From Flavobacterium sp. (GTDB lineage Bacteria > Bacteroidota > Bacteroidia > Flavobacteriales > Flavobacteriaceae): DNA of 64,000 nt. The stretch is taken from contig VEQT01000006.1 of assembly GCA_018883065.1 (NCBI GenBank), positions 1,581 to 65,580 of the forward strand, written 5' to 3'. The notes below the pieces were generated by a model. The model searched no databases. It saw only the letters and a program-made list of their open reading frames with translations, and was not told where the DNA came from. Position numbers and translations under genes: made by a program. How positions within the stretch are numbered: the first letter of the stretch is position 1; the number at the start of each line of letters is the position of its first letter. Shown here in pieces: positions 1,996 to 55,921 of the stretch.

Positions 1996-2548
1996 AGTAC
2001 GCTGCGGTTGGTGCGAAAAAGACGACCTCTACCGCGAGTACCATGACCAAGAATGGGGTAATCCAGTATACGATGACGCCACTCTTTTTGAATTTTTGGT
2101 ACTCGAAACCTTTCAGGCGGGCTTAAGTTGGCATACTATTTTAAAAAAACGGGAGCATTTTAAAGTTGCATTTGACAACTTTGATTACCAAAAAATTGCT
2201 GCCTATTCTGAAGAAAAAATTCAAGCACTACTAGACGATGCAGGTATTATTCGCAACCAATTAAAAATTAGGGCAACTGTAAATAATGCACAAAACTTTA
2301 TTCGCGTACAAAAAGAATTTGGCAGTTTCTCCTCCTACATTTGGCAATTTACCGAGGGAAAACCCGTGATAAATTATTGGAAAACACTGGCCGAAATTCC
2401 TGCCTCTACTCCTCTTTCAGATGCCGTAAGTAAAGACTTAAAAAAACGCGGATTTAAATTTGTGGGAACCACAGTAGTGTATGCACACCTACAAGCTACC
2501 GGCATGGTAAACGATCACTTGTTATCGTGTTGGAAACGAAATGTCTAG
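1985..2548 (+). CDS. tag: DNA-3-methyladenine glycosylase I
   Basis: RCGWC..Y..YHDQEWG, LETFQAGLSW, IIRNQLKI, GFKFVG, GMVNDH; start reassigned to ATG 1985. Confidence 0.95.
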   Translation: MTTKVRCGWCEKDDLYREYHDQEWGNPVYDDATLFEFLVLETFQAGLSWHTILKKREHFKVAFDNFDYQKIAAYSEEKIQALLDDAGIIRNQLKIRATVNNAQNFIRVQKEFGSFSSYIWQFTEGKPVINYWKTLAEIPASTPLSDAVSKDLKKRGFKFVGTTVVYAHLQATGMVNDHLLSCWKRNV

Positions 2549-2551
2549 TAA

Positions 2552-3190
2552 CTACTTGGCTTGAAGAATCTTCATGAAATTGGCTCGACTAATTTCAATG
2601 CCACCCAATAAATGCAAATGGTCATTATACACTTGACAATCTAATAACAGGTAATTGTTGTCTTTGAGGAAATTCACTAGCCATACAAATCCTACTTTGC
2701 TGGCGTTCGATACTTTTGAAAACATACTTTCCCCACAAAACACATGGCCTAAATCAACACCATATAAGCCGCCTACCAATTGGCCATCTTGCCATACCTC
2801 AACCGATTTGGCATGGCCTAATGCGTGTAATTTATTATAAGCGGTTACAATGTCTTCGGTAATCCAAGTGCCATATTGGCCCATGCGTTCAATTTGTTGG
2901 CAATTTCGAATCACTTCCTCAAAGTGTTGATTAAATGTAATTTGAAATTTATTTTTATTGATAATTGAACGCAAATTTTTGGGAATCTTATAAATAGCTG
3001 GAGCCACGACCATTCTTTGTGGAGGTGCCCACCATAAAATTGGTTCGTCTTCATTAAACCAGGGAAAAATTCCATTTCGGTAGGCCAAAAGTAAACGCGC
3101 TACCGAGAGGTCGCCACCTACTGCCAATACTCCTTCGGGCGATGCTTCATCGACCGGGGGAAAGTAAAGAGCTTTGGTTAAAAACTGCAT
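2552..3190 (-). CDS. aat: Leucyl/phenylalanyl-tRNA--protein transferase
   Basis: GGDLS..RL..AY..GIFPWF, LVGGLYG, FCGESMFS, DCQV; start probably ATG 3190. Confidence 0.95.
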   Translation of the reverse strand: MQFLTKALYFPPVDEASPEGVLAVGGDLSVARLLLAYRNGIFPWFNEDEPILWWAPPQRMVVAPAIYKIPKNLRSIINKNKFQITFNQHFEEVIRNCQQIERMGQYGTWITEDIVTAYNKLHALGHAKSVEVWQDGQLVGGLYGVDLGHVFCGESMFSKVSNASKVGFVWLVNFLKDNNYLLLDCQVYNDHLHLLGGIEISRANFMKILQAK

Positions 3191-3271
3191 GGGTGTAAAA
3201 TAAAAGAATTTAGAAAATTGAGGGTTTGTGCTCAACTTTCTAAATTCATAATGTGACTAATACGAGGCGGT

Positions 3272-3655
3272 TTAGAATGGCAAATCGTCGTGGTCCTCTT
3301 CTGTAAAACTAGGTGCTACTGGAAAAACAGGTGTTTCAGGTGATGCTGCATTTGGCGCTGATGATGCTGCGCTTCCGGCATCTTGTAGACGTTCAATTCT
3401 CCACCCTTGGATGCTGTTAAAATACTTGGCTTCTCCTTGTTGATTGATCCATTCACGACCGCGCAAATTGATAGACACTTTAACGCCCTCACCAACTTTA
3501 TAATTGTTGAGCAAATCACATTTATCTTGGGTAAATTCAACCATAATGTGTTGTGGATACTGCTCATCGGTTGTCACTACTAATTCTCTTTTACGAAATG
3601 TGGCGCTTACTTGTTGTTCGGCATTGATTACTTTGATTTTTCCTGCTACTTCCAT
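3272..3655 (-). CDS. DUF3127 family OB-fold protein with an SSB-like tail
   Basis: FRKRELVVTT.EQYPQ, NLRGREW, YFNSIQGWRI, C-terminal DDLPF. Confidence 0.85.
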   Translation of the reverse strand: MEVAGKIKVINAEQQVSATFRKRELVVTTDEQYPQHIMVEFTQDKCDLLNNYKVGEGVKVSINLRGREWINQQGEAKYFNSIQGWRIERLQDAGSAASSAPNAASPETPVFPVAPSFTEEDHDDLPF

Positions 3656-3689
3656 GGGTTCAATTTTATAGATTTCTAATTATATTTTA

Positions 3690-4559
3690 CTAAGCTAAAA
3701 GCACTTTCCAAGCTGATTCTACATCATTAATTTGCACATAACGCAGCGCCAACTGCAATTGTTTGATGGGCTCATCAGCGCTTAATACCGCTTTGAGTTC
3801 AAAATTTTGCTTCACAAAGATAGCAACTTCTTCTGGGGTTGGCAATGTATCAATATTGGCCAAAACACCCAGATCATTCCCGCTAAATAATCCACTTTTT
3901 TTAACAAAATCTGGGATGGCATCCACACCAATTCCCAAGGTAGTTAGGGGTTTTGGCACCTCAAAAAGTCCGGCATTTGCTCGGCTATACCAGTTTCCAC
4001 CCAAACGGGCAACAAGGTCTAACTTTTCTTGAATAATTGCGCCTTTTTCATCTAACACAGCTTCGTTAATGTGAATTTTAACCACCTCACATATCACCAA
4101 ATTGCCTGCTCCTCCATGGTTACCTAATGCAATCACTTGATTGACTTTGCATTCAAATTGCACGGGGGCTTCTTGCACGCGAAACGGTTTTACCAGCATC
4201 GATGGAATGGGAGTAAATCCCGCTTTCACAAACTCATTGACTCCCTCGGCATATTCGGTACTGGCCAATGACATTTGTTGCACCATAGCATAATCAACTA
4301 CATTGATTACCACTTCTTGGATTTCTTGCACATTAGACAAGGTATGCTTAATTGAATTATCTCGAACCCGTCTGGCCGGAGAAAAAATCAAAATAGGCGG
4401 ATTAGCGCTAAATACATTAAAAAAACTAAAGGGCGACAAATTGGGCTGTCCCTTAGCATTTAGAGTACTGGCAAAAGCAATGGGTCTGGGTGCTACTGCA
4501 CCCTGCAAATACGCCTGCAATTGAACTGTAGATAAATCGTGGGGATTGATGCTTAACAT
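3690..4559 (-). CDS. Flavin reductase family protein (DIM6/NTAB)
   Basis: PRPIAFAST, NLSPFSFFN, KHTL.N, VARLGG.WY. Confidence 0.9.
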   Translation of the reverse strand: MLSINPHDLSTVQLQAYLQGAVAPRPIAFASTLNAKGQPNLSPFSFFNVFSANPPILIFSPARRVRDNSIKHTLSNVQEIQEVVINVVDYAMVQQMSLASTEYAEGVNEFVKAGFTPIPSMLVKPFRVQEAPVQFECKVNQVIALGNHGGAGNLVICEVVKIHINEAVLDEKGAIIQEKLDLVARLGGNWYSRANAGLFEVPKPLTTLGIGVDAIPDFVKKSGLFSGNDLGVLANIDTLPTPEEVAIFVKQNFELKAVLSADEPIKQLQLALRYVQINDVESAWKVLLA

Positions 4560-4667
4560 GGGTTGAATTTAAACAAAATTAGAAAACCTGTTGCTGTATT
4601 GGTTAAATTATTCTAAACATAATGTGCCTAATTTTTCAACAACAACCAGTGTGGTGTAGCATTCGAT

Positions 4668-5846
4668 TTGAGTATATTTATGCCACAAATTGAAACTATG
4701 CAATTTAGCAAACACAAAGACCTCATTCGGTGGACGCTCATTCTAGGCTCCTTCATTATTATCAGTTTGATTTTGTGGAATACCTATACCTTTTTTACTA
4801 TTTTCAAAAACGAAGAGCGGTTAAAAATGGAATTGTGGGCGCAAGCACAAAAATCTGTAAATAGTTCAGATGAAAATGTCGATTTAACCCTTGCAACTGA
4901 GGTAATTACCAAACCCAATACCATTCCGATCATTTTGACGGATCAAAATAATCATATTATTAAAGTCAATAATCTTGATGCTACTATTTTGACTGACTCG
5001 GTTCAAGCCAAGGCAACAATAGCCACTTTCAAAAAGCAAAATGAACCCATTAAAATGGAAATTGGGCCCGGAAAATTTCAGTATTTATATTACGGAAACT
5101 CCTCATTGCTCGAAAGACTCATCTACTACCCAATTGCCTTGCTGCTTATTATTGTGTTGTTTTGCGCGTTGGTTTATGTATTTTACCGAAGCACAAAAAT
5201 GGCTGCCCAAAGTAAATTATGGGCTGGAATGGCCAAAGAAACGGCACATCAAATTGGCACGCCCTTGTCTTCCTTGATTGGGTGGCTTGAATTAATGAAA
5301 ACTGATGCATTAGATGCATCGTCGATAGCCGAAATGGAGAAAGACATTGTGCGACTTCAAACAATTACAGAACGATTTTCAAAAATTGGATCTGAGCCAG
5401 CACTAGAAAACTTAGATTTAGTAAAAGAAACTGCTGAATCATATGCCTACCTCGAATCTCGTTTTGCCCAGCAAGTAGCCTTTTCATTTTCTGCTCCCGA
5501 TCAAAAAATAATGCTGCCTTTAAATGCAACCTTACACAGTTGGACCATCGAAAACCTGGTGAAAAATGCACTCGACGCAATGAGAGGCAAAGGATCACTC
5601 AGTATACGACTAGAAGTTGAAGCCGGTTTGGTGAAAATTAAAATAAGTGATACAGGAAAAGGAATTCCTAAAAATCAATTTAATCACGTGTTTGAGCCTG
5701 GCTTTACCACCAAAAAAAGAGGTTGGGGACTGGGTCTTTCCCTCACCAAGCGGATTGTTGAAGAATACCACAAAGGAAAAATAAAAGTAATTGAATCCGA
5801 AATTGGCAAAGGCACTACCATTCAAATTTCATACAAAATCAATTAG
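4668..5846 (+). CDS. Sensor histidine kinase (no adjacent response regulator)
   Basis: Two TM segments, H-box ETAHQIGTPLSSL, ENLVKNA, DTGKGI, FEPGFTTK..GWGLGLS; start uncertain (ATG 4680 or 4698). Confidence 0.9.
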   Translation: MSIFMPQIETMQFSKHKDLIRWTLILGSFIIISLILWNTYTFFTIFKNEERLKMELWAQAQKSVNSSDENVDLTLATEVITKPNTIPIILTDQNNHIIKVNNLDATILTDSVQAKATIATFKKQNEPIKMEIGPGKFQYLYYGNSSLLERLIYYPIALLLIIVLFCALVYVFYRSTKMAAQSKLWAGMAKETAHQIGTPLSSLIGWLELMKTDALDASSIAEMEKDIVRLQTITERFSKIGSEPALENLDLVKETAESYAYLESRFAQQVAFSFSAPDQKIMLPLNATLHSWTIENLVKNALDAMRGKGSLSIRLEVEAGLVKIKISDTGKGIPKNQFNHVFEPGFTTKKRGWGLGLSLTKRIVEEYHKGKIKVIESEIGKGTTIQISYKIN

Positions 5847-6997
5847 CGTCTGCGCGGATTCGTATAAAATAATTCCGCCCTATTCTCAATAGGAGTTGCC
5901 ACATACTCTTGCACAAAGGCCAATTGTACTTCCCATGCTTTTTTGGTTGAAGCAAATGATTTTGTCAACCCATTCACTTGCCCCAAAAGCGCTCGATCTA
6001 CTTCTTTTAAAGCCATCAAACTGGCATAGGCTTGGGTAAAATTATTAAAGGGCAACTGCACGCTAGCCACCAATTCCTCATCTGAAATTGCCGGCTTAAA
6101 TTGCTGGTTTCTAAACATGACTACTTTGTTGTAAGCAGAAATGCTGGCGTTAAACTCGTCTACGAGCTGACTTAATTTATCGGAGGTAGAGTTGAGTCCA
6201 AAGTAGCTAATTTCACGCTTCAAGTAGGTTTCCTGTGCGCGCAACATGGGGTTTGAAATCCCCATCATTTGCAGGTGATTCAGTTCCAGTTTTGATTTTT
6301 CTATTTCCGTTAATGCCAAATAGGACTCAAGTTCTACTGTTGGATTACAGCTAATTTTTTGGGGTTGCAATTCGGGTTCGTTGCTTTTAAATTGTGCAGG
6401 GCTCATCGGATTGGGAAGCAATTGCCAGAGGTATTCAAACGGATAATGCGACTGGATTAAATCGGCAGGAGGTGTGCGAAAATAATAGGTATTAAAATGG
6501 TCTTGGTATTGATTTTCAATTACTACTCCAGCTCCCCATGTAGGATCAAACAATTCCCATTTTCCATTGAGTTTAGCTGCACACCATTGGTGGGTTTGGG
6601 TACTTATTTTACCGTATTGTTTGGTATAGCCCGACACCAATTCGACGGGGATTTGACTTGCGTCTGCTAGCGCTTTAAATACCTCAGCATAATGCATACA
6701 CACCCCTTTGCGAGTAGTGAGTGCCGATTGAACTTTCTCGGGAGAAGTTTGGGTATCGTATTGCCCATTAATGCTGCCAGGCAAATCATACGCAATGGCG
6801 TGTGTTGTCCAATAAAAAATAGCCGCAATTTTGTCTTCTTCACCAGTAAAATGGGTGTTGATGAATCCCGCTACTGATACTATTGTAGGTGACTGAACTG
6901 CGGGCATTTGATCAAGTGTTTTTGCTATTGCATCAAACTGCTGCGCCTGAACAACTCCCGCGTACAGTAAACTAAAAAATAATAGTATTTTTTTCAT
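5843..6997 (-). CDS. Secreted transglutaminase-like/papain-fold protein
   Basis: Signal peptide MKKILLFF; Cys (GVCMHYA), His (HQW) and Asp (DPTWGAG) triad. Confidence 0.8.
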   Translation of the reverse strand: MKKILLFFSLLYAGVVQAQQFDAIAKTLDQMPAVQSPTIVSVAGFINTHFTGEEDKIAAIFYWTTHAIAYDLPGSINGQYDTQTSPEKVQSALTTRKGVCMHYAEVFKALADASQIPVELVSGYTKQYGKISTQTHQWCAAKLNGKWELFDPTWGAGVVIENQYQDHFNTYYFRTPPADLIQSHYPFEYLWQLLPNPMSPAQFKSNEPELQPQKISCNPTVELESYLALTEIEKSKLELNHLQMMGISNPMLRAQETYLKREISYFGLNSTSDKLSQLVDEFNASISAYNKVVMFRNQQFKPAISDEELVASVQLPFNNFTQAYASLMALKEVDRALLGQVNGLTKSFASTKKAWEVQLAFVQEYVATPIENRAELFYTNPRRR

Positions 6998-7062
6998 GTT
7001 AGTGATAAAAAAATCACCAATCGTAGGAACCACAATTGATGATTGATGACGTATTTCTCTAT

Positions 7063-7452
7063 TTACAAATTGGCCTGAATGGCTTGGGCTAAGGCAGTAA
7101 ATTCATCGGGCGTGAGGCTTACTTTATTTTGAAAACGCATTTCATCCATCTCGTTTAAAGGAATTAAATGCACATGTGCATGCGGCACTTCAAGCCCAAC
7201 AACAGCCATTCCAATACGTTTGCAAGGAACTGTTTTTTCGAGGGCAACGGCTACTTTTTTGGCAAATGTCATCAAACCCAAATAGGCTTGGTCGTCTAAA
7301 TCAAATAATTTATTGATCTCTTGTTTAGGAATGCAAAGTGTATGTCCTTTGGCATTGGGATTTACATCCAGAAAAGCCAAATGTTGTTCATCTTCAGCGA
7401 TGCGGTAACAGGGAATTTCTCCAGCTACAATTTTACTAAAAATACTGGCCAT
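7063..7452 (-). CDS. HIT family hydrolase
   Basis: SIFSKIVAGEIP, GHTL.IPK, HAHVHLIP. Confidence 0.95.
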   Translation of the reverse strand: MASIFSKIVAGEIPCYRIAEDEQHLAFLDVNPNAKGHTLCIPKQEINKLFDLDDQAYLGLMTFAKKVAVALEKTVPCKRIGMAVVGLEVPHAHVHLIPLNEMDEMRFQNKVSLTPDEFTALAQAIQANL

Positions 7453-7453
7453 C

Positions 7454-7930
7454 TTAGTCGCGTGTAATTTCTAAAACCTCAAATTTTAATACCCCGTTGG
7501 GTACGGTAATTTCAGCTATTTCTCCTACCGATTTTCCCAACAAGCCTTTGCCAATTGGTGAAGTCACCGAGATTTTTCCTGTTTTTAAATCGGCTTCGCT
7601 TTCGGCTACCAAGGTGTATTTCATTTCCATGCCATTGGCTTGGTTCTTGATTTTAACATTGGACAACACCAAAGCTTTTGATACATCCAATTGCGATTCA
7701 TCAATGAGACGCGCATTGGCATACACTTCTTCTAATTTGGAGATGCGCATTTCCAATAAGCCTTGCGCTTCTTTGGCCGCATCGTACTCGGCGTTTTCAG
7801 ACAAATCGCCTTTGTCACGAGCATCGGCTATATCTTGTGAGGCTTTGGGACGCATCACGCTCTTTAAATGATCTAATTCTTCTTTTAATTTTTTTAATCC
7901 TTCTGCGGTATAATACGATACTGTACTCAT
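7454..7930 (-). CDS. greA: Transcription elongation factor GreA
   Basis: ARDKGDLSENAEYDAAKE, ISVTSPIGKGLLGK. Confidence 0.98.
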   Translation of the reverse strand: MSTVSYYTAEGLKKLKEELDHLKSVMRPKASQDIADARDKGDLSENAEYDAAKEAQGLLEMRISKLEEVYANARLIDESQLDVSKALVLSNVKIKNQANGMEMKYTLVAESEADLKTGKISVTSPIGKGLLGKSVGEIAEITVPNGVLKFEVLEITRD

Positions 7931-7951
7931 AATTTCATTGGTTATATAAAT

Positions 7952-7993
7952 AGAAAAAATCCCATCTGGACGGGATTTCTTTTTTCAAAGATA
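7952..7993 (-). promoter_or_regulatory. greA promoter -7 motif followed by a terminator-like leader hairpin
   Basis: Minus strand: TATCTTTG (7993-7986), then AAATCCC-GTCCAGAT-GGGATTT-TTTCT. Confidence 0.6.
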
Positions 7994-8089
7994 GTATTTT
8001 TACTAAACGGGTGCTTTATTCAATTAATTTAGCGGAGTCAAAGTTAAAGAATTATATTTGTTTGCCTTCAACTTACACAACTTATTTTT

Positions 8090-8512
8090 ATGAGAAACCG
8101 CATTATCTGTTTACTCACCTTGCTGTATATTTCTTGCGCCGATAGTACCCAGCGCAACAATAATCCGTATTTGCCCAACTATGGTTTTTCAATAACAATC
8201 AATAAAAATTTACCCCTTTACAGTGGATTAAATAGTCCAATTAATCCCATTATCATTCGCGAGTCAACAGCAGGAATAAGCGGCATCATTGCCATGAAAA
8301 TTTCGGATTCTGATTACCGTGCGTGGGAACTCAGTTGTCCAAACCAAGTGCCCGCACCTTGTTCAGTAATGACACTCAATGGCTTGAACGCTAAATGTAG
8401 TTGTATTGATAATTTTGAGTACAGTTTGTTTACCGGAATTGGCAATGCGCCTTACACCATGAAACCCTATCGAGTAGAAATTCAGGGCAACTTGATTCAA
8501 ATTTCGAACTAA
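8090..8512 (+). CDS. Lipoprotein with a degenerate Rieske-like fold
   Basis: Lipobox LYIS-C; ELSCPN..PC...KCSC..F.YSLFTG...MKPYRV. Confidence 0.6.
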   Translation: MRNRIICLLTLLYISCADSTQRNNNPYLPNYGFSITINKNLPLYSGLNSPINPIIIRESTAGISGIIAMKISDSDYRAWELSCPNQVPAPCSVMTLNGLNAKCSCIDNFEYSLFTGIGNAPYTMKPYRVEIQGNLIQISN

Positions 8513-10584
8513 AACAGCACACTCATACCAATGAATCCATGGATTCCAGCTTGTGGATAAAAAAACACAGCTCCGCCGCCATAATCAGCACCGTTAGCGC
8601 TGTATTTCTTGTCGAACATATTGGCCAATAAACCAGAAAATACCACACTATTGAATACAGATTTCGGCTTAATTTCATAGCTAAAATTCAAATCATTTAC
8701 CCAATAATCTGCAAGTCGAGCATCACTAGTTTCCTCATTATTCAAAAACTGGGCGCTCACGTATTTTTGCAACCAACTCACTTTTAATGTCTTGCTAGGC
8801 GAATAGCTTAGTTGTGCACCCGAAATTAAATCTGGAGAAAAGGCTATGGTTTTGCCATTCCATGAATTTCCATCGCGAATTACATTTTTACTTTTAGTAA
8901 CATTGGCCTGCACCTGAAATTTTGATCCCAAAACCATACTGGCGTCAAGTTCAATACCCATGCGGTAACTTTTTCCTGTGTTGGCACGAATGGGATTACC
9001 CACCTCATCGAGTTGACCCGTTAGCACTAACTGATCTTGATAGCCCATATAATACCCATTTACAGCCCATTTTAGCTTTGCGGTTTGTTTTCGCCAGCCC
9101 AATTCAAAATCGTCCAACTTTTCAGGTCTTGGATTGCCGTTTTCATAATCGGTACGATTGGGCTCACGTTGGGCTTTGGCATAAGAAAAATACAATTGGT
9201 TTTTAGCATCCACTGCGTAGGTAAGTCCTGCCTTGGGGTTAAAAAAAGCAAAAACATCATCAACAGCAGTAGTTGAAATACCAGGCGCTGCATAGTACAC
9301 ATGCCTAAACTGAAGATCGGCATATGCGCTCCATTTGGCATTCAATTGAAATTGTCCTTTTACAAATACATTTCCATCTTTTTTTGTGGCCAAATTATCG
9401 TAGTAGCGGTCACCCAACTCATTGGTTGTAGCTACGCGCGTCCAAATTACCTTGCCAAAATGACTTCCAAAATAAGTGTTGTACCCGCCGCCTAAAAGCC
9501 ATTCTGTTTTATCGCTTTTTCGTTTCAAAGAAAAGGTAGTTCCATAAAAATCATTATCCAACCACTTTTGATCAACAACATCGCCAATTGTTTCAGGACC
9601 TGTTGGCACTAAATTATACAAAGCCAATTCGGCTTCATCGTTAAAGTTCTCGTAATACCCTTTTCCTTTGGTGTAATGCAAAGCAAAAGTGCTACTCCAT
9701 TTGGAAGAAAAGGTTTCGGTCCAATGCAGTTGCACATGATCTTGCTGGTAGTTGTCGGTTTGATTATCATAAAAACGCAGTTCACCATTGGCATCGGTGT
9801 ACATACCTGCAAAGTTAAAGGTGCGGGTGTTGTTTAGTGTTGCTGCATCTACACCATACCATGATTGATAGGTTTTTTCAGTTCCGCCAAAAACCAAGGC
9901 CTTTAATAAAGAGGTTTTACCAACAAAAGTAGCTTGCAAAAAGTAGGACTTTAATAGGGACTCTGCTCGATCAATGTAACCATCTGAAGCAATATTTGAA
10001 AGTCGACCCGCCAATTCAAATTGATTATTGAGTAAACCTGTACTAAATTTTACCGTATTTTTTCGGGTGTTAAAACTTCCCACCGAATTGTCTATTTGGG
10101 CATAACTTTTCTCCGAATAGGAATCGGTGAGCACATTCAAACTGGCGCCAAATGCACCTGCACCATTGGTTGAAGTTCCAACGCCACGCTGCAATTGAAC
10201 GCTGGCAACCGACGAAGCAAAATCGGGTAAATTTACCCAAAACGTGCTGTGGCTTTCGGAATCGTTATAGGGTATTCCATTCAGAGTAACGTTTACACGA
10301 GTAGCGTCACTTCCTCTAACCCGAACGCCCGTATACCCTATTCCATTTCCAGCATCAGAGGTGGTAACCACCGAAGGCATAAAATTGAGCAATAAAGGAA
10401 TGTCTTGTCCCAAATTGCGGGAAGCCAACTCCTTTTTGGTTAGGTTACTAAAACTAACTGGCGTGCTTGCAGTGGCGCGTATCGATGACACCAGCACCTC
10501 ATTTAAGGCATTGACCTTGGTTGTGTCTTGGATTTGGGCGAAAGTGATTGTTGAAAGAAAAAAAAGGGCAATAGTTGTTTTCAT
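8509..10584 (-). CDS. TonB-dependent receptor, probably for thiamine uptake
   Basis: Plug motifs (GQDIPLLL, VRGSDATR.NVTLNGIP.ND, VQLQRGVG), C-terminal F, TPP riboswitch upstream. Confidence 0.9.
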   Translation of the reverse strand: MKTTIALFFLSTITFAQIQDTTKVNALNEVLVSSIRATASTPVSFSNLTKKELASRNLGQDIPLLLNFMPSVVTTSDAGNGIGYTGVRVRGSDATRVNVTLNGIPYNDSESHSTFWVNLPDFASSVASVQLQRGVGTSTNGAGAFGASLNVLTDSYSEKSYAQIDNSVGSFNTRKNTVKFSTGLLNNQFELAGRLSNIASDGYIDRAESLLKSYFLQATFVGKTSLLKALVFGGTEKTYQSWYGVDAATLNNTRTFNFAGMYTDANGELRFYDNQTDNYQQDHVQLHWTETFSSKWSSTFALHYTKGKGYYENFNDEAELALYNLVPTGPETIGDVVDQKWLDNDFYGTTFSLKRKSDKTEWLLGGGYNTYFGSHFGKVIWTRVATTNELGDRYYDNLATKKDGNVFVKGQFQLNAKWSAYADLQFRHVYYAAPGISTTAVDDVFAFFNPKAGLTYAVDAKNQLYFSYAKAQREPNRTDYENGNPRPEKLDDFELGWRKQTAKLKWAVNGYYMGYQDQLVLTGQLDEVGNPIRANTGKSYRMGIELDASMVLGSKFQVQANVTKSKNVIRDGNSWNGKTIAFSPDLISGAQLSYSPSKTLKVSWLQKYVSAQFLNNEETSDARLADYWVNDLNFSYEIKPKSVFNSVVFSGLLANMFDKKYSANGADYGGGAVFFYPQAGIHGFIGMSVLF

Positions 10585-15455: not shown

Positions 15456-16772
15456 ATGAGTACGACAACTATGCCTTATGTGGCCTACAAAGTAAAAGAC
15501 ATTTCCTTGGCAGCTTGGGGAAGAAAAGAAATTGAATTGGCTGAAGCTGAAATGCCGGGTTTAATGGCACTTCGTGCAGAATATGGCGCAAGTCAACCGT
15601 TAAAAGGAGCACGCATTGCAGGCTGTTTACACATGACTATCCAAACAGCAGTATTAATTGAAACCTTAATTGCTCTTGGAGCTGAAGTTACTTGGTCATC
15701 GTGTAACATTTTCTCAACGCAAGACCAAGCCGCAGCAGCCATTGCCGCAGCAGGTATTCAAGTTTATGCATGGAAGGGATTAAACGAAGAAGACTTTGAT
15801 TGGTGTATTGAGCAAACGTTATTCTTTGGTGAAGACCGCAAACCGTTAAACATGATTTTAGATGATGGAGGTGATTTAACCAATATGGTATTTGATCGTT
15901 ACCCAGAATTAATTGACGGAATTAAAGGATTGTCTGAAGAAACGACTACGGGTGTTCACCGTTTGTATGAGCGCATGAAAAATGGCACCTTGTTTATGCC
16001 AGCCATCAATGTGAATGACTCGGTAACTAAATCTAAATTTGACAACAAATACGGTTGTAAAGAATCGGCGGTTGATGCCATTCGTAGAGCTACTGACGTA
16101 ATGTTGGCCGGAAAACGTGTAGTTGTGTGTGGATACGGAGATGTTGGGAAAGGAACTGCTGCTTCATTCCGCGGCGCAGGTTCAATTGTTACAGTAACAG
16201 AAATTGATCCAATATGCGCGCTTCAAGCTGCTATGGACGGATTTGAAGTTAAAAAATTGAATACTGTTGTTGCAAATGCCGACATTGTGATTACTACAAC
16301 TGGAAACAAAAACATCGTTTTGGGAAGTCACTTTGAACAAATGAAAGACAAAACCATTGTGTGTAACATTGGTCATTTTGATAACGAAATTGACATGGCT
16401 TGGTTAAATAAAAACCACGGTGCTTCAAAAGTTGAAATTAAACCACAAGTAGATAAATATACCATTGCAGGTAAAGACATTTTGATTTTAGCCGAAGGTC
16501 GTTTGGTTAACTTAGGTTGCGCTACAGGACACCCAAGTTTTGTAATGAGTAACTCATTTACAAATCAAACCTTGGCTCAAATAGAGTTATGGACCAACAG
16601 TGCTGCATACAAAAATGAAGTGTACATGTTACCCAAACACCTCGACGAAAAAGTAGCAGCTTTACACCTTGCAAAATTAGGCGTAGAACTCGAAACCTTA
16701 AACGATGAACAAGCAGCTTACATTGGCGTTGCTGTTCAAGGACCGTTTAAGCCAGAGTATTATAGATACTAA
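15456..16772 (+). CDS. ahcY: Adenosylhomocysteinase
   Basis: [48 protein letters not shown]. Confidence 0.98.
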
Positions 16773-16796
16773 GATTTTAGAATTAAATATTGATAC

Positions 16797-16826
16797 AAAG
16801 CCCTTACATTGCTGTAAGGGTTTTTT
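16797..16826 (+). terminator. Intrinsic terminator of ahcY
   Basis: AAAGCCCTTAC-ATTGCT-GTAAGGGTTTTTT. Confidence 0.85.
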
Positions 16827-16849
16827 GTTTTTTACCTCGAATGAACGAT

Positions 16850-17334
16850 TTTTTTAGATGACAGACAAAAAGAGATTAGATGACAGACGTAGCTAAGAAA
16901 TTCCAATCTAAAAATTCCAATGCCGAAGCGTTGGGACCTAAAACTTGATTATTGGTTTTCGCAACACAGATTTATAAAATTTGTGAAATAATTAAAATTT
17001 TTCAGATTATATACATTTCTTCAATCCGTGCTCCAAAAAAAATATTTGCCACGAATGCACGAATTATATAAATTCCAATATAAAAATTCCAATCCCGATG
17101 CTTCGGGACCAACAACCACAATAGCACCACCGAAGACTTCCATGACCATAGGATTTGGCAGGCGTCCCGAAGCGTCGGGACAAAAGGGTGAGACTTCCGT
17201 AAAGAAACTCAAACTGTTTGAGTCCGCGAGGTAACGAGCGGGAGAGTTTTTGAGTTTTAGGAAGTGAGCCTATTTTGATCGCCGAAAATCCAAGGTCTTG
17301 ATTTTTTGTTTCTTTTTCATCAAGGAAAAAGAAA
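16850..17334. repeat. Composite modular intergenic repeat, locus 1 (modules A-B-C-B-D-B-E)
   Basis: Near-identical blocks recur at 53630-54075; CCCGAAGCTTCGGGAC-type palindromes at about 16921, 17093 and 17165. Confidence 0.9.
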
Positions 17335-17399
17335 GGAATAACATTTGGAATTACACTATTTCATTTTTAGAATAATGACTTTAAAAAAAGCTACTAGCT

Positions 17400-17434
17400 A
17401 AAAAAAAGGAGAACAGTGCTGTTCTCCTTTTTTT
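17400..17434. terminator. Bidirectional intrinsic terminator
   Basis: A8-GGAGAACAG-TG-CTGTTCTCC-T7 perfect inverted repeat. Confidence 0.85.
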
Positions 17435-17437
17435 GTT

Positions 17438-17827
17438 TTAGCGTAAAACCTCTATTGTTACTTGACTAAACTCACCTTGAGTGAGGCCAGCTTTGATGTA
17501 GGCAAATAAATTGGTTTGATCTATTTCGCAGTATTTTAAATCGACTTTGGGGTTGTCTATATTTAATATTTTAATGTGCTTTTTATCTTCATTAGATAGA
17601 AAAGTTATCAGTATAACACGAGGATATTTAGGAAGTTTAAGTTTAAATTTCTCTATATCACTCGAAAGTTTATCAACTGTTTTTTGATTTGTTTGGGCGA
17701 GTTTTTGGTGTTTTAATTCGTTTTCTGGATTAAGTTCTTGAGTAAAGGATTCCATTTTTAGCTGATTGCTAAAATAAGTGGCGGTGATTCGTAATGTAAT
17801 TCTGATTTCAGAAACAAGTTTTGGCAT
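17438..17827 (-). CDS. Orphan hypothetical protein
   Basis: 129-aa AT-rich ORF (alternative start 17755) ending at a terminator; no motif recognised. Confidence 0.5.
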   Translation of the reverse strand: MPKLVSEIRITLRITATYFSNQLKMESFTQELNPENELKHQKLAQTNQKTVDKLSSDIEKFKLKLPKYPRVILITFLSNEDKKHIKILNIDNPKVDLKYCEIDQTNLFAYIKAGLTQGEFSQVTIEVLR

Positions 17828-42493: not shown

Positions 42494-42925
42494 ATGTCTA
42501 TAGCCGATTTATTTGATAACGAATTTAAAACCAGAAACAAAGGACATTTTTCAGCCATCGTACGCGTTGCGTTTGCCGATGGAGCTATTAGTCCTGAAGA
42601 AAAATCCTTTTTAGATAAACTAGCCGAACGGCTCGAAATTTCGGCGGGGGAGTACGAAGAAATTTTAGAAAACCCCACCAAATACGCAATCAATCCTCCG
42701 TATTTATACAGCCAAAGATTAGAGCGTCTTTACGACTTAGCGCGCATGGTCCATGTAGATCATCAGCTAGGCAACAAACAAGAAGTGCTATTGTGCAGAT
42801 TAGGCATTGCCTTAGGATTCACTCCTTCAAACGTTGAACATATTGTTCGCAAGGCCTTGAACTTGCTAGACAACAAAGTTGACCAAGATACTTTTGTGTA
42901 TGAAATGGAGCACATGAATAAGTAA
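42494..42925 (+). CDS. TerB-family tellurite resistance-like protein
   Basis: VAFADGAISPEEK.FL, DL.RM...D; start ATG 42494. Confidence 0.8.
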   Translation: MSIADLFDNEFKTRNKGHFSAIVRVAFADGAISPEEKSFLDKLAERLEISAGEYEEILENPTKYAINPPYLYSQRLERLYDLARMVHVDHQLGNKQEVLLCRLGIALGFTPSNVEHIVRKALNLLDNKVDQDTFVYEMEHMNK

Positions 42926-42983
42926 TTAATAATTAAAAATGAATAATTAATAATTGTAGAAATATACTAAGGACAGCTTTTAG

Positions 42984-43165
42984 TCGAAAGTCAAAAGTTG
43001 TAAAGTCGAAAGAATATATGTATGCTAAGAACGGCTGATTGCTAATTGCTTTCAGCTGTTTTTTTATTAAAGTCTATTCTAAATCGAAAGTCAAAAGTTG
43101 TAAAGTCGAAAGAATATATGTATGCTAAGAACGGCTGATTGCTAATTGCTTTCAGCTGTTTTTTT
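42984..43165. repeat. Perfect 82-bp direct repeat (two copies, 100-bp period), each containing a terminator hairpin
   Basis: 42984-43065 equals 43084-43165; AACGGCTGA..TCAGCTGTT-T-tract. Confidence 0.95.
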
Positions 43166-43207
43166 GAGAGGTGAGACTGAAAGAGGAGAGAGAAACGATG
43201 GTTCTAC

Positions 43208-43225
43208 ATCCCAAAACTTCGGGAC
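43208..43225. repeat. REP-like module B copy
   Basis: ATCCCAAAACTTCGGGAC. Confidence 0.6.
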
Positions 43226-53100: not shown

Positions 53101-53539
53101 GCTTAATGTAACTGGACTTAGCGGACGAAATTACCGAATCAGCAGTCAATTTGTGGCACCAAAATTATCCTACATTTTTTCGCAGAATGCCAGTTTAGAT
53201 GTGTTTGTAGAACAACAAAATAAATCCAATGAACTGGGCGAGAATGAACAGCTAAAACAAACCCGCATGGGCAGCTCATTTGCCTACACCGGTGAAAAAA
53301 AAGTAACCCTAAATGGAGAATATTCATTCTACAACAATGCATTTACAGGCAATCCACTCACGCCTGCAGCCTTTCAGATGCTAGAGGGTTTACAACCAGG
53401 CAAAAACAGCACTTGGCGGTTATTGATTCAAAAAAACCTCACCCAATACTTGGAACTCAACCTCAACTACCAAGGCCGAAAAAGCGAGAACAATCCGGTG
53501 GTACATATTGGGTCGGTTCAGCTGAGAGCATATTTTTAA
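50126..53539 (+). CDS. Large uncharacterised outer-membrane beta-barrel protein
   Basis: 1137 aa, signal peptide, alternating beta patterns, C-terminal QLRAYF. Confidence 0.75.
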   Translation: MRKLFGIVMVLGIASAVQAQKLETPYKSKTIAPTYDTIHIDSVSINASFFKVLSANNTPIPSESYEVNFPKGKLIFKKNYPLPTDSIRIRYLKFPEHLTKKYSIYDDSKVLTTNTRQPKLFSISPVTTTRFVPFDGLNTSGSITRGITVGNNQNSVVNSNLDLQISGKISDKISLRASIQDSNIPLQEGGYSQKLDEFDQVFMELYSDRWAIRAGDLFIENRNSSFLNFNKKVQGLSSRFAFGSPDSTQTDVFASVALVRGQYAKSAFNGQEGNQGPYKLKGTNGELYVLVISGSERVFVNGILLERGENKDYIIDYNAGEIVFTSLYPINSEMRITIEYQYSERNYNRMISYLGGSVMQEKWSIRSAVYAESDLKNQPLQQSLTDEQIAVLQTAGDNSLAMYAPSAFEDTYAPTKVLYKKITLNGFTYFEYSTDETAVLYSVRFSLLGQNQGDYVLSNASVVGKIFEFIAPINGVKQGNYEPVIKLVAPTKMQIANVMGSIHPNEKTNIDWELAVSQNDANLFSNLDDSDNNGLAGKWNVSQRLLSKKWEVNASSSFQYVQNNFKTIERVNNIEFARDWNLGVYSGNQGLFTSGIEAILPKKGRVVYQYENLNLSTFFSGNKHQVSGSFQFAKWNIQQKGSVMKSNSQLATTAFIRENLQAKWHYKKNWIGGSIRLEDNQERLKSTQTLTGISQRFSEFGGFVGRGDSTKVYTQIGYLHRRTDSIQNGLLQHVSRSHSYILKSKVLQSEARDLGIFINYRRLEFIDPNRKNEPSLNSRILYNDNFGGKWTQTSTAYETASGTIAQQEFTYIEVPPGQGVYAWIDYNNNGLQELEEFETAPFPDQAKFIRVFLPTQVFIQTHQNKFSESVSLNPGGWRTKTGFRKVISYFYNQTAFSIDRKTKREANQFNLDPFSSSGQTILGLQQNFRNSLFFNRGKQYHSITYTLLESKVQNLLLFGSQYGSNLGHQLQYNHLIAKTWLLGMSAKTGLSTLNVTGLSGRNYRISSQFVAPKLSYIFSQNASLDVFVEQQNKSNELGENEQLKQTRMGSSFAYTGEKKVTLNGEYSFYNNAFTGNPLTPAAFQMLEGLQPGKNSTWRLLIQKNLTQYLELNLNYQGRKSENNPVVHIGSVQLRAYF

Positions 53540-54075
53540 TTAATAATTAAAAAATAATAATTAATAATTACGGCTGTTTGCTGATAGCTATCAGCCACGA
53601 ATGCACGGATTCTTGAAATTCCAATAAGTTAAATTCCAATCCCGAAGCTTCGGGACAAAACTTCGGGACCTAAAACTGGATTATTGGTTTTCGCAACACA
53701 GATTTATAAAATTTGAGAAATAGTTAAAATTTTCAGATTATATACATTTCTTCAATCCGTGTTCCAAAAAAATGTTTACCACGAATGCACGAATTATATA
53801 AATTCCAATACGTTAAAATCCAAATACAGTTGTATACAATTCGCAACACAGATTTATAAAATTTGAGAAATAAGTAAAATTTTTCAGATTATATACATTT
53901 CTTCAATCCGTGTTCAAAAAAATGTTTGCAACGAATGCACGGATGTTTTTTAGATGACAGACAAAAAGAGGTTAGATGAGAGACGTTGCTATGAAATTCC
54001 AATCCCGAAGATTCGGGACCAAAACCTCGGCACCAATAATCATTATAGCGCCACCAAAGACTTCTCTGACCATTA
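53537..54075. repeat. Composite modular intergenic repeat, locus 2 (F..B-b-C-C'-A-B-D)
   Basis: Internal duplication 53691-53793 versus 53841-53944; blocks shared with 16850-17150. Confidence 0.9.
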
Positions 54076-54098: not shown

Positions 54099-54128
54099 AA
54101 AAAGTCGAAACGCGCGTTTCGACTTTTT
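54099..54128 (-). terminator. tRNA terminator (perfect 30-bp palindrome)
   Basis: AAAAAGTCGAAACGCGCGTTTCGACTTTTT. Confidence 0.85.
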
Positions 54129-54129
54129 G

Positions 54130-54203
54130 TGGAGAATACCGGAATCGAACCGGTTACCTCTTGCCTGCCAGGCAAGCGCTCTAGCCAAGTGAGCTAATCC
54201 CCC
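54130..54203 (-). tRNA. tRNA-Ala(GGC), CCA not encoded
   Basis: GGGGGATTAGCTCA..; anticodon arm CTTGC-CTGGCAG-GCAAG; T arm ACCGG-TTCGATT-CCGGT; G3:U70 pair; TATATTTG promoter at 54220-54213. Confidence 0.97.
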
Positions 54204-54220
54204 ATTCGGGTGCAAATATA

Positions 54221-55921
54221 TTAAAAAGATGTATTTAACGACAAAGAAACACCAGAACTTTCTGGAACGAAACGGCAAACACCTCCTACACACACTAAAC
54301 CACCTCTTTGTCGGCCGTAATTTAATGATACACGTGTTGCGTTTTTACGATATGAACCTCCAACATTATAGTAATGATTTCGGTAATAGGCCGTATCATT
54401 TCCGTAATTGTACAAATCATATAGGTACATCGAAAATTTCGAGTTAAAATTATATTCAAAGGTAGCCGCTGCCCAATTTTTACGATCATAATCAGCCCAC
54501 ATATGCTCTCCCATAAAACGAACCGATTGTCCTTTATCTAATTTATAAATTATGTCCCCTCCAACAATGTGTGCATTAACTTCGCCTGTAGCGTCTTCGA
54601 TATATTTTTTGTTGTAGTATTGATTGATATAACTCAAAATCGTTTGCCACTTGGGCGACCATTTTTTTGTGATTTCAAAATTGACATCCGAATAAAATCG
54701 TTCTCCAAAACCAAAGAAATCGGTTTTATAATTTTGCGGATTGTAAATATAATAGTCTCCGCTTAGTCCATTAAAATTTGATGCATTCAGCGCAACTTTT
54801 GTGCCGTATTTACCCCCAAATTGAGTTCCTTTTTTAAAGTCGTAAAATAAATCTATTTGCCCCCCAATGTCCCCGGCTTTTACATAGTTGGAGCCAGCTA
54901 AAAGCACGTTGGGTTGTGCCTGGTATACATAAATATTAGCAAGATTATAGTGGTGTTGTTTGGTTAAACTTGGAATGAAATTCATGATTCGATCATTAAA
55001 AATATTTCCTTTAGCACCACGTTCAGAGAAAAAACTCATGTTCTCCATGCGGCGAAACGAACCATCAAGTCCAAATCCTTTTTTTGAATACCCCAAATTA
55101 ATCAACAAAGCACTACCGGGCTTTATCAATTTATTGTCTACTTGACCAGGCGCCTGCACCACAGCATCTTCTGATTTGTAATTGTATTCAGCCGAAAAGT
55201 AAATCGAATTATGTGTCACATTGATACGCCCAGAAACCCCATTGGTTAAGGCATCAAAATTGGGATTTTCGATTGTTGTTTTTTCATAGCGCCCCACATA
55301 ATTACCGCCCAAGGTTAAATCGGTTGTGTTCCATTTTAGGGCTTTAGAAATAGTCCATTCCCAATCGCCACCAAAAATTTCAGACTGTGCCACGTCAAAC
55401 CCTGTACGTTGTTTACCATATATTAATTTGGTAGTGAAAAAAGGGCTCGGTTTAAATATAATTCGTCCTCCACGCAAAGCATTGTTAATGCCTAAAGCCC
55501 GATCTTCCCATGTTCTAAAAAGCAAGCCGCTTCCAAATTGTTCATAGTAATACCCAGCGGTAACGTCTACTTTTTCTCCTTTGTATTGCACAAAATAGGT
55601 AGCTACATTGGTGCCGTTGTATTTTGGATTCATGTTTAACAGCGCATTTTGCTCATATGCTTCGCCTTGAATTCCAGCTATCCATTTCTTGTACGAATAA
55701 TTCACAAATAAATACGAATTGGACCGAAGTGGTTCAGGTGGATGAACCGTTGAGTTGCCATCAATGTCTTTGAGGCCTTTGTCATTTAAATACCACTGGG
55801 CATTCGATTCAAAGCCACCACTAAAGATTCCTTTATCTTTGGATTGTTTTTCAGATTGTGCAAGACTAAGTACAGAAGTCAATAGTGCTACTAAGGCACT
55901 TGTTAGGCGTTTTTTGGTCAT
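54221..55921 (-). CDS. DUF6029 family outer-membrane protein
   Basis: Signal peptide, G.FYEQFGSG, YGRQRGGLVCVGGVCRFVP, C-terminal F. Confidence 0.8.
   Translation of the reverse strand: MTKKRLTSALVALLTSVLSLAQSEKQSKDKGIFSGGFESNAQWYLNDKGLKDIDGNSTVHPPEPLRSNSYLFVNYSYKKWIAGIQGEAYEQNALLNMNPKYNGTNVATYFVQYKGEKVDVTAGYYYEQFGSGLLFRTWEDRALGINNALRGGRIIFKPSPFFTTKLIYGKQRTGFDVAQSEIFGGDWEWTISKALKWNTTDLTLGGNYVGRYEKTTIENPNFDALTNGVSGRINVTHNSIYFSAEYNYKSEDAVVQAPGQVDNKLIKPGSALLINLGYSKKGFGLDGSFRRMENMSFFSERGAKGNIFNDRIMNFIPSLTKQHHYNLANIYVYQAQPNVLLAGSNYVKAGDIGGQIDLFYDFKKGTQFGGKYGTKVALNASNFNGLSGDYYIYNPQNYKTDFFGFGERFYSDVNFEITKKWSPKWQTILSYINQYYNKKYIEDATGEVNAHIVGGDIIYKLDKGQSVRFMGEHMWADYDRKNWAAATFEYNFNSKFSMYLYDLYNYGNDTAYYRNHYYNVGGSYRKNATRVSLNYGRQRGGLVCVGGVCRFVPESSGVSLSLNTSF

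Follow-up and report, generated by a model that had tools for sequence, protein, structure and literature searches.

What kind of element is a cluster of short repeats that sits between two converging genes, and does any part of it have a role of its own? This question is raised by an intergenic region of a Flavobacterium contig (VEQT01000006.1), which we analyzed within a stretch of 64,000 nucleotides, referred to here as the window; coordinates without a locus number are window positions. The region, locus 1, is enclosed by the convergent genes ahcY and a 129-aa open reading frame (ORF), and its repeats extend from 16834 to about 17338, whereas the initial annotation had let them end at 17181. 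Locus 1 is a mosaic of dispersed intergenic modules resembling the bacterial interspersed mosaic elements (BIMEs). The annotation had proposed such a likeness, and it was right in kind, as the modules form a dispersed intergenic mosaic at convergent gene ends. With moderate confidence we favor an explanation in which the cluster has two layers: short modules specific to one clade and, present once, an old structured element that we call unit E (17144-17334, + strand) and that would act in cis as a + strand RNA element at gene ends.

Unit E is about 190 nt long. In BLAST comparisons of the window loci with related loci the stretch 17045-17300 was conserved as a single piece with 80-85% identity. 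The rod of E is a long hairpin, GACCAT...GGTC (17144-17297, +), which was recognized by folding, by a covariance model and by compensatory variants. It contains a B palindrome (17165-17181, +) and an inner helix (17204-17213 with 17249-17257, +), and in the helix flanking the apex GAAACTCAAA pairs with TTTGAGTTT. The apex consists of the 5' half CTGTTTGAG (17214-17222, +), a variable apical hairpin of 21 nt (17223-17243, +) and the 3' half GAGTT (17244-17248, +). The rod is followed by the tail CTTGATTTTTTG-TTTCTTTTTC-ATCAAG-GAAAAAGAAA (17297-17334, +), a T run followed by a hairpin whose 5' arm consists of pyrimidines and whose 3' arm consists of purines, after which similarity ends abruptly. 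The predicted fold of E has an energy of -70.1 kcal/mol compared with -50.3 +/- 4.5 kcal/mol for shuffled sequences (z = -4.4), and none of 200 shuffles was equally stable. Moreover, the variants of the apical hairpin are compensatory (CCCGC/GCGGG, CCCTC/GAGGG, CCCGT/ACGGG and GGC-GNNA-GCC). The copies at loci L031 and L036, which are orthologous to locus 1, are 93-94% identical to E, whereas third codon positions of ahcY are identical at 83% and 59.5% only. Therefore, E is either constrained or homogenized. Each of six genome assemblies held at least 4-7 copies. An alignment of 22 E copies further placed CCAACAACCACAATAGCACCACCGAAGACTTCCAT (17109-17143, +) in the 5' flank of E. This flank is the former module D (17109-17149, matching 54031-54074), which is thus no module of its own, as had been assumed, but the beginning of a longer conserved unit.

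A protein-coding tail was rejected, as the minus-strand ORF starting with MKKKQKIK... ranges from 9 to 77 aa and has no consistent sequence past residue 8. ORFs across the element had no match to a Pfam family. The minus strand of all tail copies (17297-17334 in the window) reads ATG AAA AAG AAA CAA AAA ATC AAG, and gene callers could therefore emit spurious 'MKKKQKIK...' peptides here.

E is a member of a family of rod-apex-tail elements that occurs in all major phyla of bacteria. The family plan comprises a rod of 150-250 nt with GRCC at its start and GGYC at its end, an apex in which CUGUYUGAG and GAGUU enclose a GCGNAGC mini-hairpin or a longer hairpin, and, about 60-90 nt beyond the apex, a tail made of a pyrimidine run and a hairpin with a pyrimidine and a purine arm. 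The helices keep pairing while their sequence drifts freely. A scan with the tail 32-mer, prompted by RNA contigs that matched the tail alone, found exact copies in at least 117 loci from Bacteroidota and one Chlorobiota assembly; among the matches listed, 58 different rod families precede it. In tail variants of Persicobacter and Ilyobacter (Fusobacteriota) the hairpin is kept through compensatory changes. A subset of the rods carries an apex of the E type, CGUNAA-arm-CUGUYUGAG-CG(N)AGCG-AGUU-arm'-UUUAG, and the apex 20-mer CTGTNTGAGCGNAGCGAGTT occurred in at least 120 loci, which come from practically every major phylum of bacteria. The matches listed include Bacteroidota, Pseudomonadota, Bacillota, Acidobacteriota, Nitrospirota, Desulfobacterota, Planctomycetota, Patescibacteria and further groups, and in every one of these matches the 20-mer forms the tip of a palindrome. 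In 124 copies the arms flanking the apex pair at 7.7 of 9 positions compared with 4.7 in an arm-swap control, and at least 8 of 9 positions are paired in 69% of the copies versus 3% in the control, with 100 distinct arm sequences among them. Besides, RNAalifold detected double-sided changes at 9 of 14 pairs in 26 members.

The window copy was recognized by a covariance model, R1, which was built from 26 family members and included no E copy. R1 matched 17166-17338 over all of its 160 positions (87.2 bits, E = 4.9e-14). This was the sole strong match in 64 kb, and all 24 other E copies were found as well with 75-98 bits. In the window apex the GCGNAGC mini-hairpin is replaced by a longer hairpin, as it is in L085, L093, L077 and L149, and the window tail does not differ in sequence from that of L068, L076, L099 or L131, all of which have the canonical apex. 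In Ralstonia-like sequencing runs the summed depth reached about 2,000-9,000 over the element compared with about 50 in the unique flank, which implies tens to over a hundred copies.

We found no description of the rod-apex-tail family in Rfam 15 or in searchable full text. Rfam 15 gave no credible match at E <= 10 for 16750-17450, none at the gathering score for 36 loci of other lineages and none at E <= 5 for three further loci. [quoted passage not shown] A phage origin was dismissed, since E is absent from viral contigs and gave no phage BLAST match; the apex occurred in only 22 viral contigs, often near the contig end. A conserved neighboring gene was likewise discarded, as the downstream genes are diverse housekeeping genes, and so was an ORF cargo at the apex, where only four long inserts were seen and none is coding. 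A hammerhead-like reading of 'GGCGAAAC' 3' of the proteobacterial tails failed because the CUGAUGA box is missing and no hammerhead match was obtained. A Pistol match to the proteobacterial tail region was weak and below threshold (19.3 bits, gathering score 34.5).

Several family members have a particular arrangement. In Ralstonia, Variovorax, Haemophilus and Lonepinella two of them stand head-to-head with apexes about 250-290 bp apart (L183 2150-2700; L216 7030-7520; L178; L211). In L183 and L216 the pair occupies a divergent intergenic region in which the tail is followed by a small GC hairpin with GAAA and then by the gene start. In a Bacillota assembly (L177 3923-4424) a member is located where an rRNA operon ends, about 400 nt downstream of a 5S rRNA gene. 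Three near-identical members lie within 3.3 kb in a Bacteroidales assembly (L159 481-3756), and their rods are layered as nested GCGTTAAGAA-arm ... arm'-TTTAGC, which suggests a repeated internal-loop unit.

In the explanation that we favor, E would act in cis as a + strand RNA at gene ends. Its giant hairpin, followed by a U run, would resemble a terminator or insulator, and the tail may protect the 3' end, in the form of a triple helix in lineages whose upstream run is the mirror image of the purine arm; the family would behave as a multi-copy dispersed repeat. In 40 of the 58 rod families the fold of the + strand is the more stable one (Wilcoxon p = 5e-4) with more G.U pairs. Well-registered tail stems, read by eye from the hairpins listed, contain G.U and almost no A.C (for example GCTTAC.../...GTGAGT and TTCGTTTT/AAAATGAA). 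The orientation relative to genes is biased: between co-directional genes the + strand of the element agrees with the genes in 25 cases versus 7, and the upstream gene is on the strand of the element in 70 cases versus 29. An orientation bias of E that we had noted initially turned out to be a preference for convergent intergenic regions and was replaced by the analysis of co-directional pairs. The sequence of E is also present in contigs of more than 20 freshwater metatranscriptomes.

The tail of Proteobacteria and several other groups has the order T/C run, linker, pyrimidine arm, loop and purine arm. Informative are 21 tails in which the purine tract A(a)GA(b) is asymmetric and a block T(c)CT(d) lies upstream. 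In 17 of them, covering five (a,b) types, (c,d) equals (a,b), and in none does it equal (b,a). This is the rule expected for a third strand parallel to the purine strand and not for a slipped direct repeat. The triples expected in such tails are U.A-U with one C+.G-C. A generic match-count test of the triplex was uninformative due to low sequence complexity, and the rule on the position of the C was used instead. A further-reaching proposal, that E belongs to an undescribed, domain-wide class of structured RNAs, long rod hairpins with a universally conserved apical motif and, on the 3' side, a triple-helix cap as the bacterial counterpart of the 3'-end protection by ENE (element for nuclear expression) and MALAT1 RNAs, which would set transcript ends and stability at gene boundaries and in some genomes number from tens to more than a hundred, appears doubtful to us.

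Several observations weigh against a cis-acting RNA or weaken the evidence for it. The window tail has a T6 run facing an A5 run, with no C upstream and no linker, so that the triple-helix potential of this copy is weak. A recognizable tail was found in only about half of the apex-bearing copies (61 of 124, lineage-specific, with a median distance of 66 nt between apex and tail start). The R1 score stems partly from tail sequence in which the window copy is identical to four training members, and the apparent invariance of the tail is in part a sampling effect because the searches used exact matches. The excess of G.U on the + strand could partly reflect its G+T composition. The metatranscriptome contigs are unstranded and may include DNA, and some of them run past the tail into flanking sequence. 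Proteobacterial copies stand upstream of genes, at odds with a pure 3'-end role, and no mobilizing enzyme, target-site duplication or empty site was found for E. Finally, the 9-bp arms at the apex are nearly all Watson-Crick paired, with 0.13 G.U versus 0.24 A.C per copy, so that a DNA hairpin fits as well as an RNA one, and GCGNAGC is a classic hyperstable DNA mini-hairpin.

The last points lead to the strongest rival, which we regard as possible though not probable: the elements would act as DNA, with rod, mini-hairpin and tail folding as a cruciform or an intrastrand triplex when the DNA is single-stranded or supercoiled, and would be fragile or recombinogenic sites or targets of a DNA-binding or DNA-cutting enzyme, their transcription being incidental. 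Apart from the Watson-Crick arms, this would agree with the hypervariability of the loci between close strains and with the location between clusters of accessory cassettes, which encode toxin-antitoxin pairs and an S24 peptidase next to a 419-aa ORF, and the mirror rule that links upstream run and purine arm is as compatible with a DNA triplex as with an RNA triplex. What speaks for RNA instead is that G.U is tolerated only on the + strand of tail hairpins and rods, that the orientation is biased relative to the upstream gene and that the sequence occurs in many metatranscriptome assemblies. Orthologous E is furthermore conserved far above the neutral level, which is unexpected for a fragile site, although gene conversion could explain it. 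We lean towards RNA rather than DNA as the acting molecule.

The first layer of the cluster would consist of the short modules J (CCACGAATGCACGAAT), W (AAATTCCAAT), B (palindrome TCCCGAAGNNTCGGGA), A and C, which appear to be specific to a freshwater Flavobacterium clade, with TAC and P2 added at related loci. Whole blocks of them are gained, lost and swapped between close relatives, most simply through recombination or gene conversion among dispersed copies with these boxes in common. The modules A, B, C and D of the initial annotation were all recovered at their places with a frequency far above chance. A at 16850-16908 matches 53946-54004. C at 16958-17040 is 95% identical to 53840-53922 and matches 53689-53771 with a 1-nt indel, and the box CCACGAATGCACGAAT follows every C copy on its 3' side. 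This junction box J, which the annotation had not named, occurs at 16834 (degenerate), 17049, 53595, 53779 and 53929. Palindrome B, searched as CCCGAAGCTTCGGGAC with at most three mismatches, was found in six places (16922, 17094, 17166, 43210, 53641 and 54004) plus a half copy at 53657-53670, while shuffles of the 64 kb gave 0.10 on average and 2 at most. W matched 42 times with at most one mismatch compared with 20.7 expected, and 8 of its 10 exact copies in the window lie in loci 1 and 2. As had been proposed, all three loci with B are located between convergent 3' ends; the enclosing genes are ahcY and the 129-aa ORF at locus 1, a 1137-aa ORF and tRNA-Ala(GGC) plus DUF6029 at locus 2, and a TerB-like gene and the gene for fructose-1,6-bisphosphatase at locus 3.

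The families exist in many copies. In a source-like metagenome (X1, holding 80% of the locus words) the summed contig depth rose from 5.3 in the unique flanks to 50-77 over C and to 28 at the end of E, and in a second metagenome (X2) it was 130-300 over C and about 100 over the cluster end compared with 6.4, with the caveat that repeat depths come from metagenomes. Depths this far above the unique flanks indicate multi-copy families and not a single old duplication, and hence more than the two copies whose finding would have spoken against dispersed modules.

How the modules are arranged was studied at 45 loci, which were obtained by scanning species genomes with W+B and with the conserved downstream stretch and which all belong to Flavobacterium or Flavobacteriaceae, mostly freshwater genome assemblies. 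Ten motifs were marked on these loci and the window, and 50 clusters were scored. In 39 of the 50 clusters all oriented motifs point one way, and the neighbor counts (W before B 28, J before W 22, TAC before J 16, E5 before B 13, B before E3 13, P2 before TAC 11) yield one canonical chain: TAC, J, W or W-W, B, E5, optionally B-B, E3, B, P2, TAC. The modules had been called shuffled, which overstates the case, since A-B-C-B-D at locus 1 and B-C-C'-A-B-D at locus 2 are two excerpts of a single, largely fixed syntax. Palindromes of type B had also been taken for the joints; J and W are equally regular at junctions, and B is neither the sole joint nor, probably, the principal one. A module of C-rich, C-rich and G-rich blocks, P2 (CCCCAGCCCCTCTCGAGAGGGGAG), recurs 3' of E in related genomes (for example L001 5640-5665, L016 5125-5150 and L041 4800-4825) and resembles the G/C-rich triplex motifs (BoxC/TMECO) of E. 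coli.

Turnover of whole blocks can be read at orthologous sites. Downstream of ahcY in L031 and L036 the terminator is followed directly by J-W-B-E, whereas the window has an additional 212-bp block J'-A-W-W-B-C (about 16837-17048) in front of J, and the J'...J pair around this block could be read as a 16-bp duplication. The orthologous loci L027 and L042 have identical flanks and outer E arms and differ in one central block, which comprises both B palindromes and the apical hairpin of E; further differences are a duplication of 16 nt in the tail and the downstream modules. The idea that palindromes are insertion joints does not agree with this exchange, in which internal B and apical hairpin swap as one block. 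Among 26 E copies both internal B sites were filled in 12, both empty in 13 and mixed in one, the window copy. Since the two sites are filled or empty together, these sequences suggest tract exchange between paralogous copies rather than independent insertions of palindromes. In addition, a near-identical strain in X2 has error-free flanks (53537-53611 and 54128-54400) around about 2.1 kb that replace 516 bp of the window, and the left breakpoint of this allele is at most 1 nt from the 3' end of J1.

Accessory cassettes between clusters of related genomes encode HigB with a helix-turn-helix (HTH) protein, Gp49 with an HTH protein, an S24 peptidase together with a 419-aa ORF, glyoxalase and DUF1801 (L006 5236-5891; L033 5112-5770; L001 5884-7592; L003 5901-7609; L045 3373-4221). 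The clusters may be hot spots of integration or exchange.

Such turnover also bears on a second rival, in which B, and perhaps E, would be copied by a single-copy Y1 transposase encoded elsewhere, either a REP-associated tyrosine transposase (RAYT) or one of the IS200 type, and insertion beside or into one another would build BIME-like clusters as in REP doublets (REPINs). We judge this improbable. B is indeed a short GC-rich palindrome with a variable 4-nt center and a conserved stem, it is clustered in extragenic sites and present or absent at two fixed sites within E, and single-strand transposition would give co-oriented modules. Yet in 25 of 26 copies of E its two B sites are either both filled or both empty, and they swap with the apical hairpin; B is also rare, with six copies in 64 kb and W+B in only 24 loci of 185,579 species genomes. 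B is a single perfect palindrome with variable 5' flanks (AAT-, GA-, GCG-); a conserved head tetranucleotide of the GTAG type is missing, inverted B pairs at fixed spacing (the REPIN arrangement) were not seen, and the ORFs sampled near elements at about 290 loci contained no Y1_Tnp domain. The REPIN/RAYT idea of the initial annotation is not borne out by these data. Its alternative, a relationship to four-helix-bundle or GxxExxY cassettes, fared no better, as PF05635 and PF13366 were absent from 65 small ORFs beside elements and no such genes were among 10 ORFs between clusters. The statement that the window contains no mobilizing enzyme is consistent with its housekeeping content as far as the best 25 of 75 Pfam families are concerned. 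As regards a MITE, the rod is one long inverted repeat, but its ends differ between lineages; no target duplication was seen at the borders of E, and no parent insertion sequence was found.

That E and its relatives are multi-copy genes for trans-acting small RNAs, with apex and tail as seed or protein-binding site, is very unlikely, since strong structure, conservation above neutral, copy number and presence in metatranscriptome assemblies are set against variable upstream sequence (J/W/B or other) with no conserved promoter and no Bacteroidota -7/-33 motif seen by eye, for which no dedicated scan was made, rods that differ wholly between lineages while only apex and tail persist, a placement bound to gene ends and RNA contigs that continue through the tail into the flank.

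The cluster can be compared with known repeats. Like the BIMEs and REP clusters of enterobacteria and the BOX elements of pneumococci it is an extragenic mosaic of a few short modules with a GC-rich palindrome, which have a preferred order, stand at gene ends and vary in number between strains, and B+W is terminator-like on one strand here. It differs from them in its sequences, in the low copy number of B, in the direct-repeat junction boxes J and W, in the lack of a linked RAYT among the ORFs sampled and in that the clusters surround a much larger conserved rod element. The enterobacterial repetitive intergenic consensus (ERIC, or intergenic repeat unit, IRU), Correia elements and MITE-like long hairpins are also intergenic imperfect palindromes of 100-200 nt, multi-copy, non-coding and present in RNA assemblies. 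ERIC and Correia elements, however, each stay within one genus or family and are defined by terminal repeats, whereas here the ends vary freely and it is the 20-nt apex and the tail hairpin that persist from phylum to phylum; for the rod-apex-tail elements neither a target-site duplication nor a parent insertion sequence is known. A relation to ERIC was dropped after BLAST against E. coli gave no match, and a partial similarity of ERIC at '...GGGGTGAGCG' is one that we only presume.

As a hairpin, unit E resembles an intrinsic terminator in its stability, in the U-rich run directly after it and in sharing the strand of the upstream gene, and differs in having at least 60 base pairs, conserved internal loops and a conserved apex, and a U run that doubles as an arm of a further conserved hairpin; in the window, moreover, E sits 3' of the ordinary ahcY terminator. 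The tail shares with the RNA triple helices of ENE and MALAT1 the block order U-rich, U-rich, A-rich, a single C+.G-C that interrupts the U.A-U stack and a position where 3' conservation ends. Those helices are eukaryotic or viral and require that the A-rich tract form the actual 3' terminus of the RNA, and the first block is degenerate in the window copy. The accessible portion of a 2026 review (PMC13541005) gives only riboswitches and a group II intron as bacterial triple-helix examples. The intrastrand triplex motifs (ITxF catalogue; BoxC/TMECO; Holder et al. 2015, PMC4666352) are similar in that the first of three consecutive blocks mirrors the third, in being abundant and conserved in bacteria and in their association with rearranged loci. 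The motif characterized in that paper is G/C-rich and of the purine type; the tail described here is A/T-rich, of the pyrimidine type and physically coupled to a rod hairpin with a conserved apex, a coupling that is not described in the accessible text of the paper.

REP, ERIC, Correia and BOX repeats have so far been treated as lineage-specific dispersed hairpin repeats. The Flavobacterium repeat shares its apex, helix plan and tail with elements of Proteobacteria, Firmicutes, Nitrospirae, the candidate phyla radiation and others. If the family is a functional RNA, it would be among the most widely distributed uncatalogued RNA structures of bacteria and would bring 3'-end triple helices into this domain; if it acts as DNA, it would be a common type of site, fragile or recombinogenic, through which intergenic variation is shaped. 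Either reading would account for assembly breaks at these loci and for spurious small ORFs and would mark hot spots of accessory cassettes, and R1 can be used for annotating the elements.

At locus 1 the left border of the repeats is the intrinsic terminator of ahcY (AAAGCCCTTACATTGCTGTAAGGGTTTT and a T run, 16797-16830, +), which was found by a terminator scan and is kept in the orthologous L031 and L036. It is followed by the J box variant J' (ACCTCGAATGAACGAT, 16834-16849, +) at the left edge of the 212-bp block; the same variant also lies 3' of AGCTTTT repeats elsewhere in the source metagenome. Module A comprises two direct copies of TTAGATGACAGAC (at 16854 and 16876; 16850-16897, +) and has no secondary structure (fold z = +1.4 and -0.2). 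Next come two AAATTCCAAT boxes with the degenerate palindrome GCCGAAGCGTTGGGAC (16898-16937, +) and the AT-rich module C with its inverted ends CACAGATT/AATCCGTG (16956-17047, +). C reaches a high copy number and forms tandem arrays elsewhere (depth 50-300 versus 5-6, with 'goes back' joints). J always follows it, the order C3 to J holding in 4 of 4 cases. A structured RNA in C was rejected, as the fold z is only about -1.2. The J box CCACGAATGCACGAAT (17049-17064, +) is 16 nt long with a tandem CACGAAT and abuts the ahcY terminator in orthologous genomes. Another W-W-B unit, AAATTCCAAT twice and then TCCCGATGCTTCGGGAC (17070-17109, +), precedes E; in the terminator scan its minus strand (17112-17089) is terminator-like, with a hairpin and a T-rich run. 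Beyond E a bidirectional terminator hairpin of the convergent 129-aa ORF (17400-17437) closes the intergenic region on the right. On an IMG/VR contig (L046 7650-7740) three J boxes stand in tandem, repeated every 35 nt (GATTAGCCACGAATGCACGAATAAAAAAGGAAGAA), with a terminator on one side and a gene start on the other, and J may be a protein-binding site.

Locus 2 begins with J1 (53595-53610), two W boxes, B (53640-53656) and the half B (53595-53670 in total, +). It continues with C, J2 (53779-53794), W, C' and J3 (53929-53944), where the C+J unit occurs twice in tandem (53688-53944, +), and ends with A, W, B (54003-54019) and a diverged fragment of the E 5' flank (54031-54074; 53946-54074 in total, +). 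This fragment has no rod, apex or tail, and R1 gives no match there. The gene families of the window, among them those of the type IX secretion system and Gld, and a Flavo-1 RNA fit a Flavobacterium-like organism. The Flavo-1 RNA (RF01705; 37370-37443, -) scored 71.2 bits against a gathering score of 42, and the repeats are unrelated to it in sequence. Locus 3 (42923-43225, +) is made of a TAATTAA-type module, a tandem duplication and a B palindrome (43209-43225). The duplication at 42965-43164 is a head-to-tail repeat of 100 bp with 91% identity and contains AGTCGAAAG / TATGCTAAGAAC modules; its AGTCGAAAGTCAAAAG and TATGCTAAGAACGGCTGATTGC modules recur in related loci, and B lies 45 bp downstream of it.

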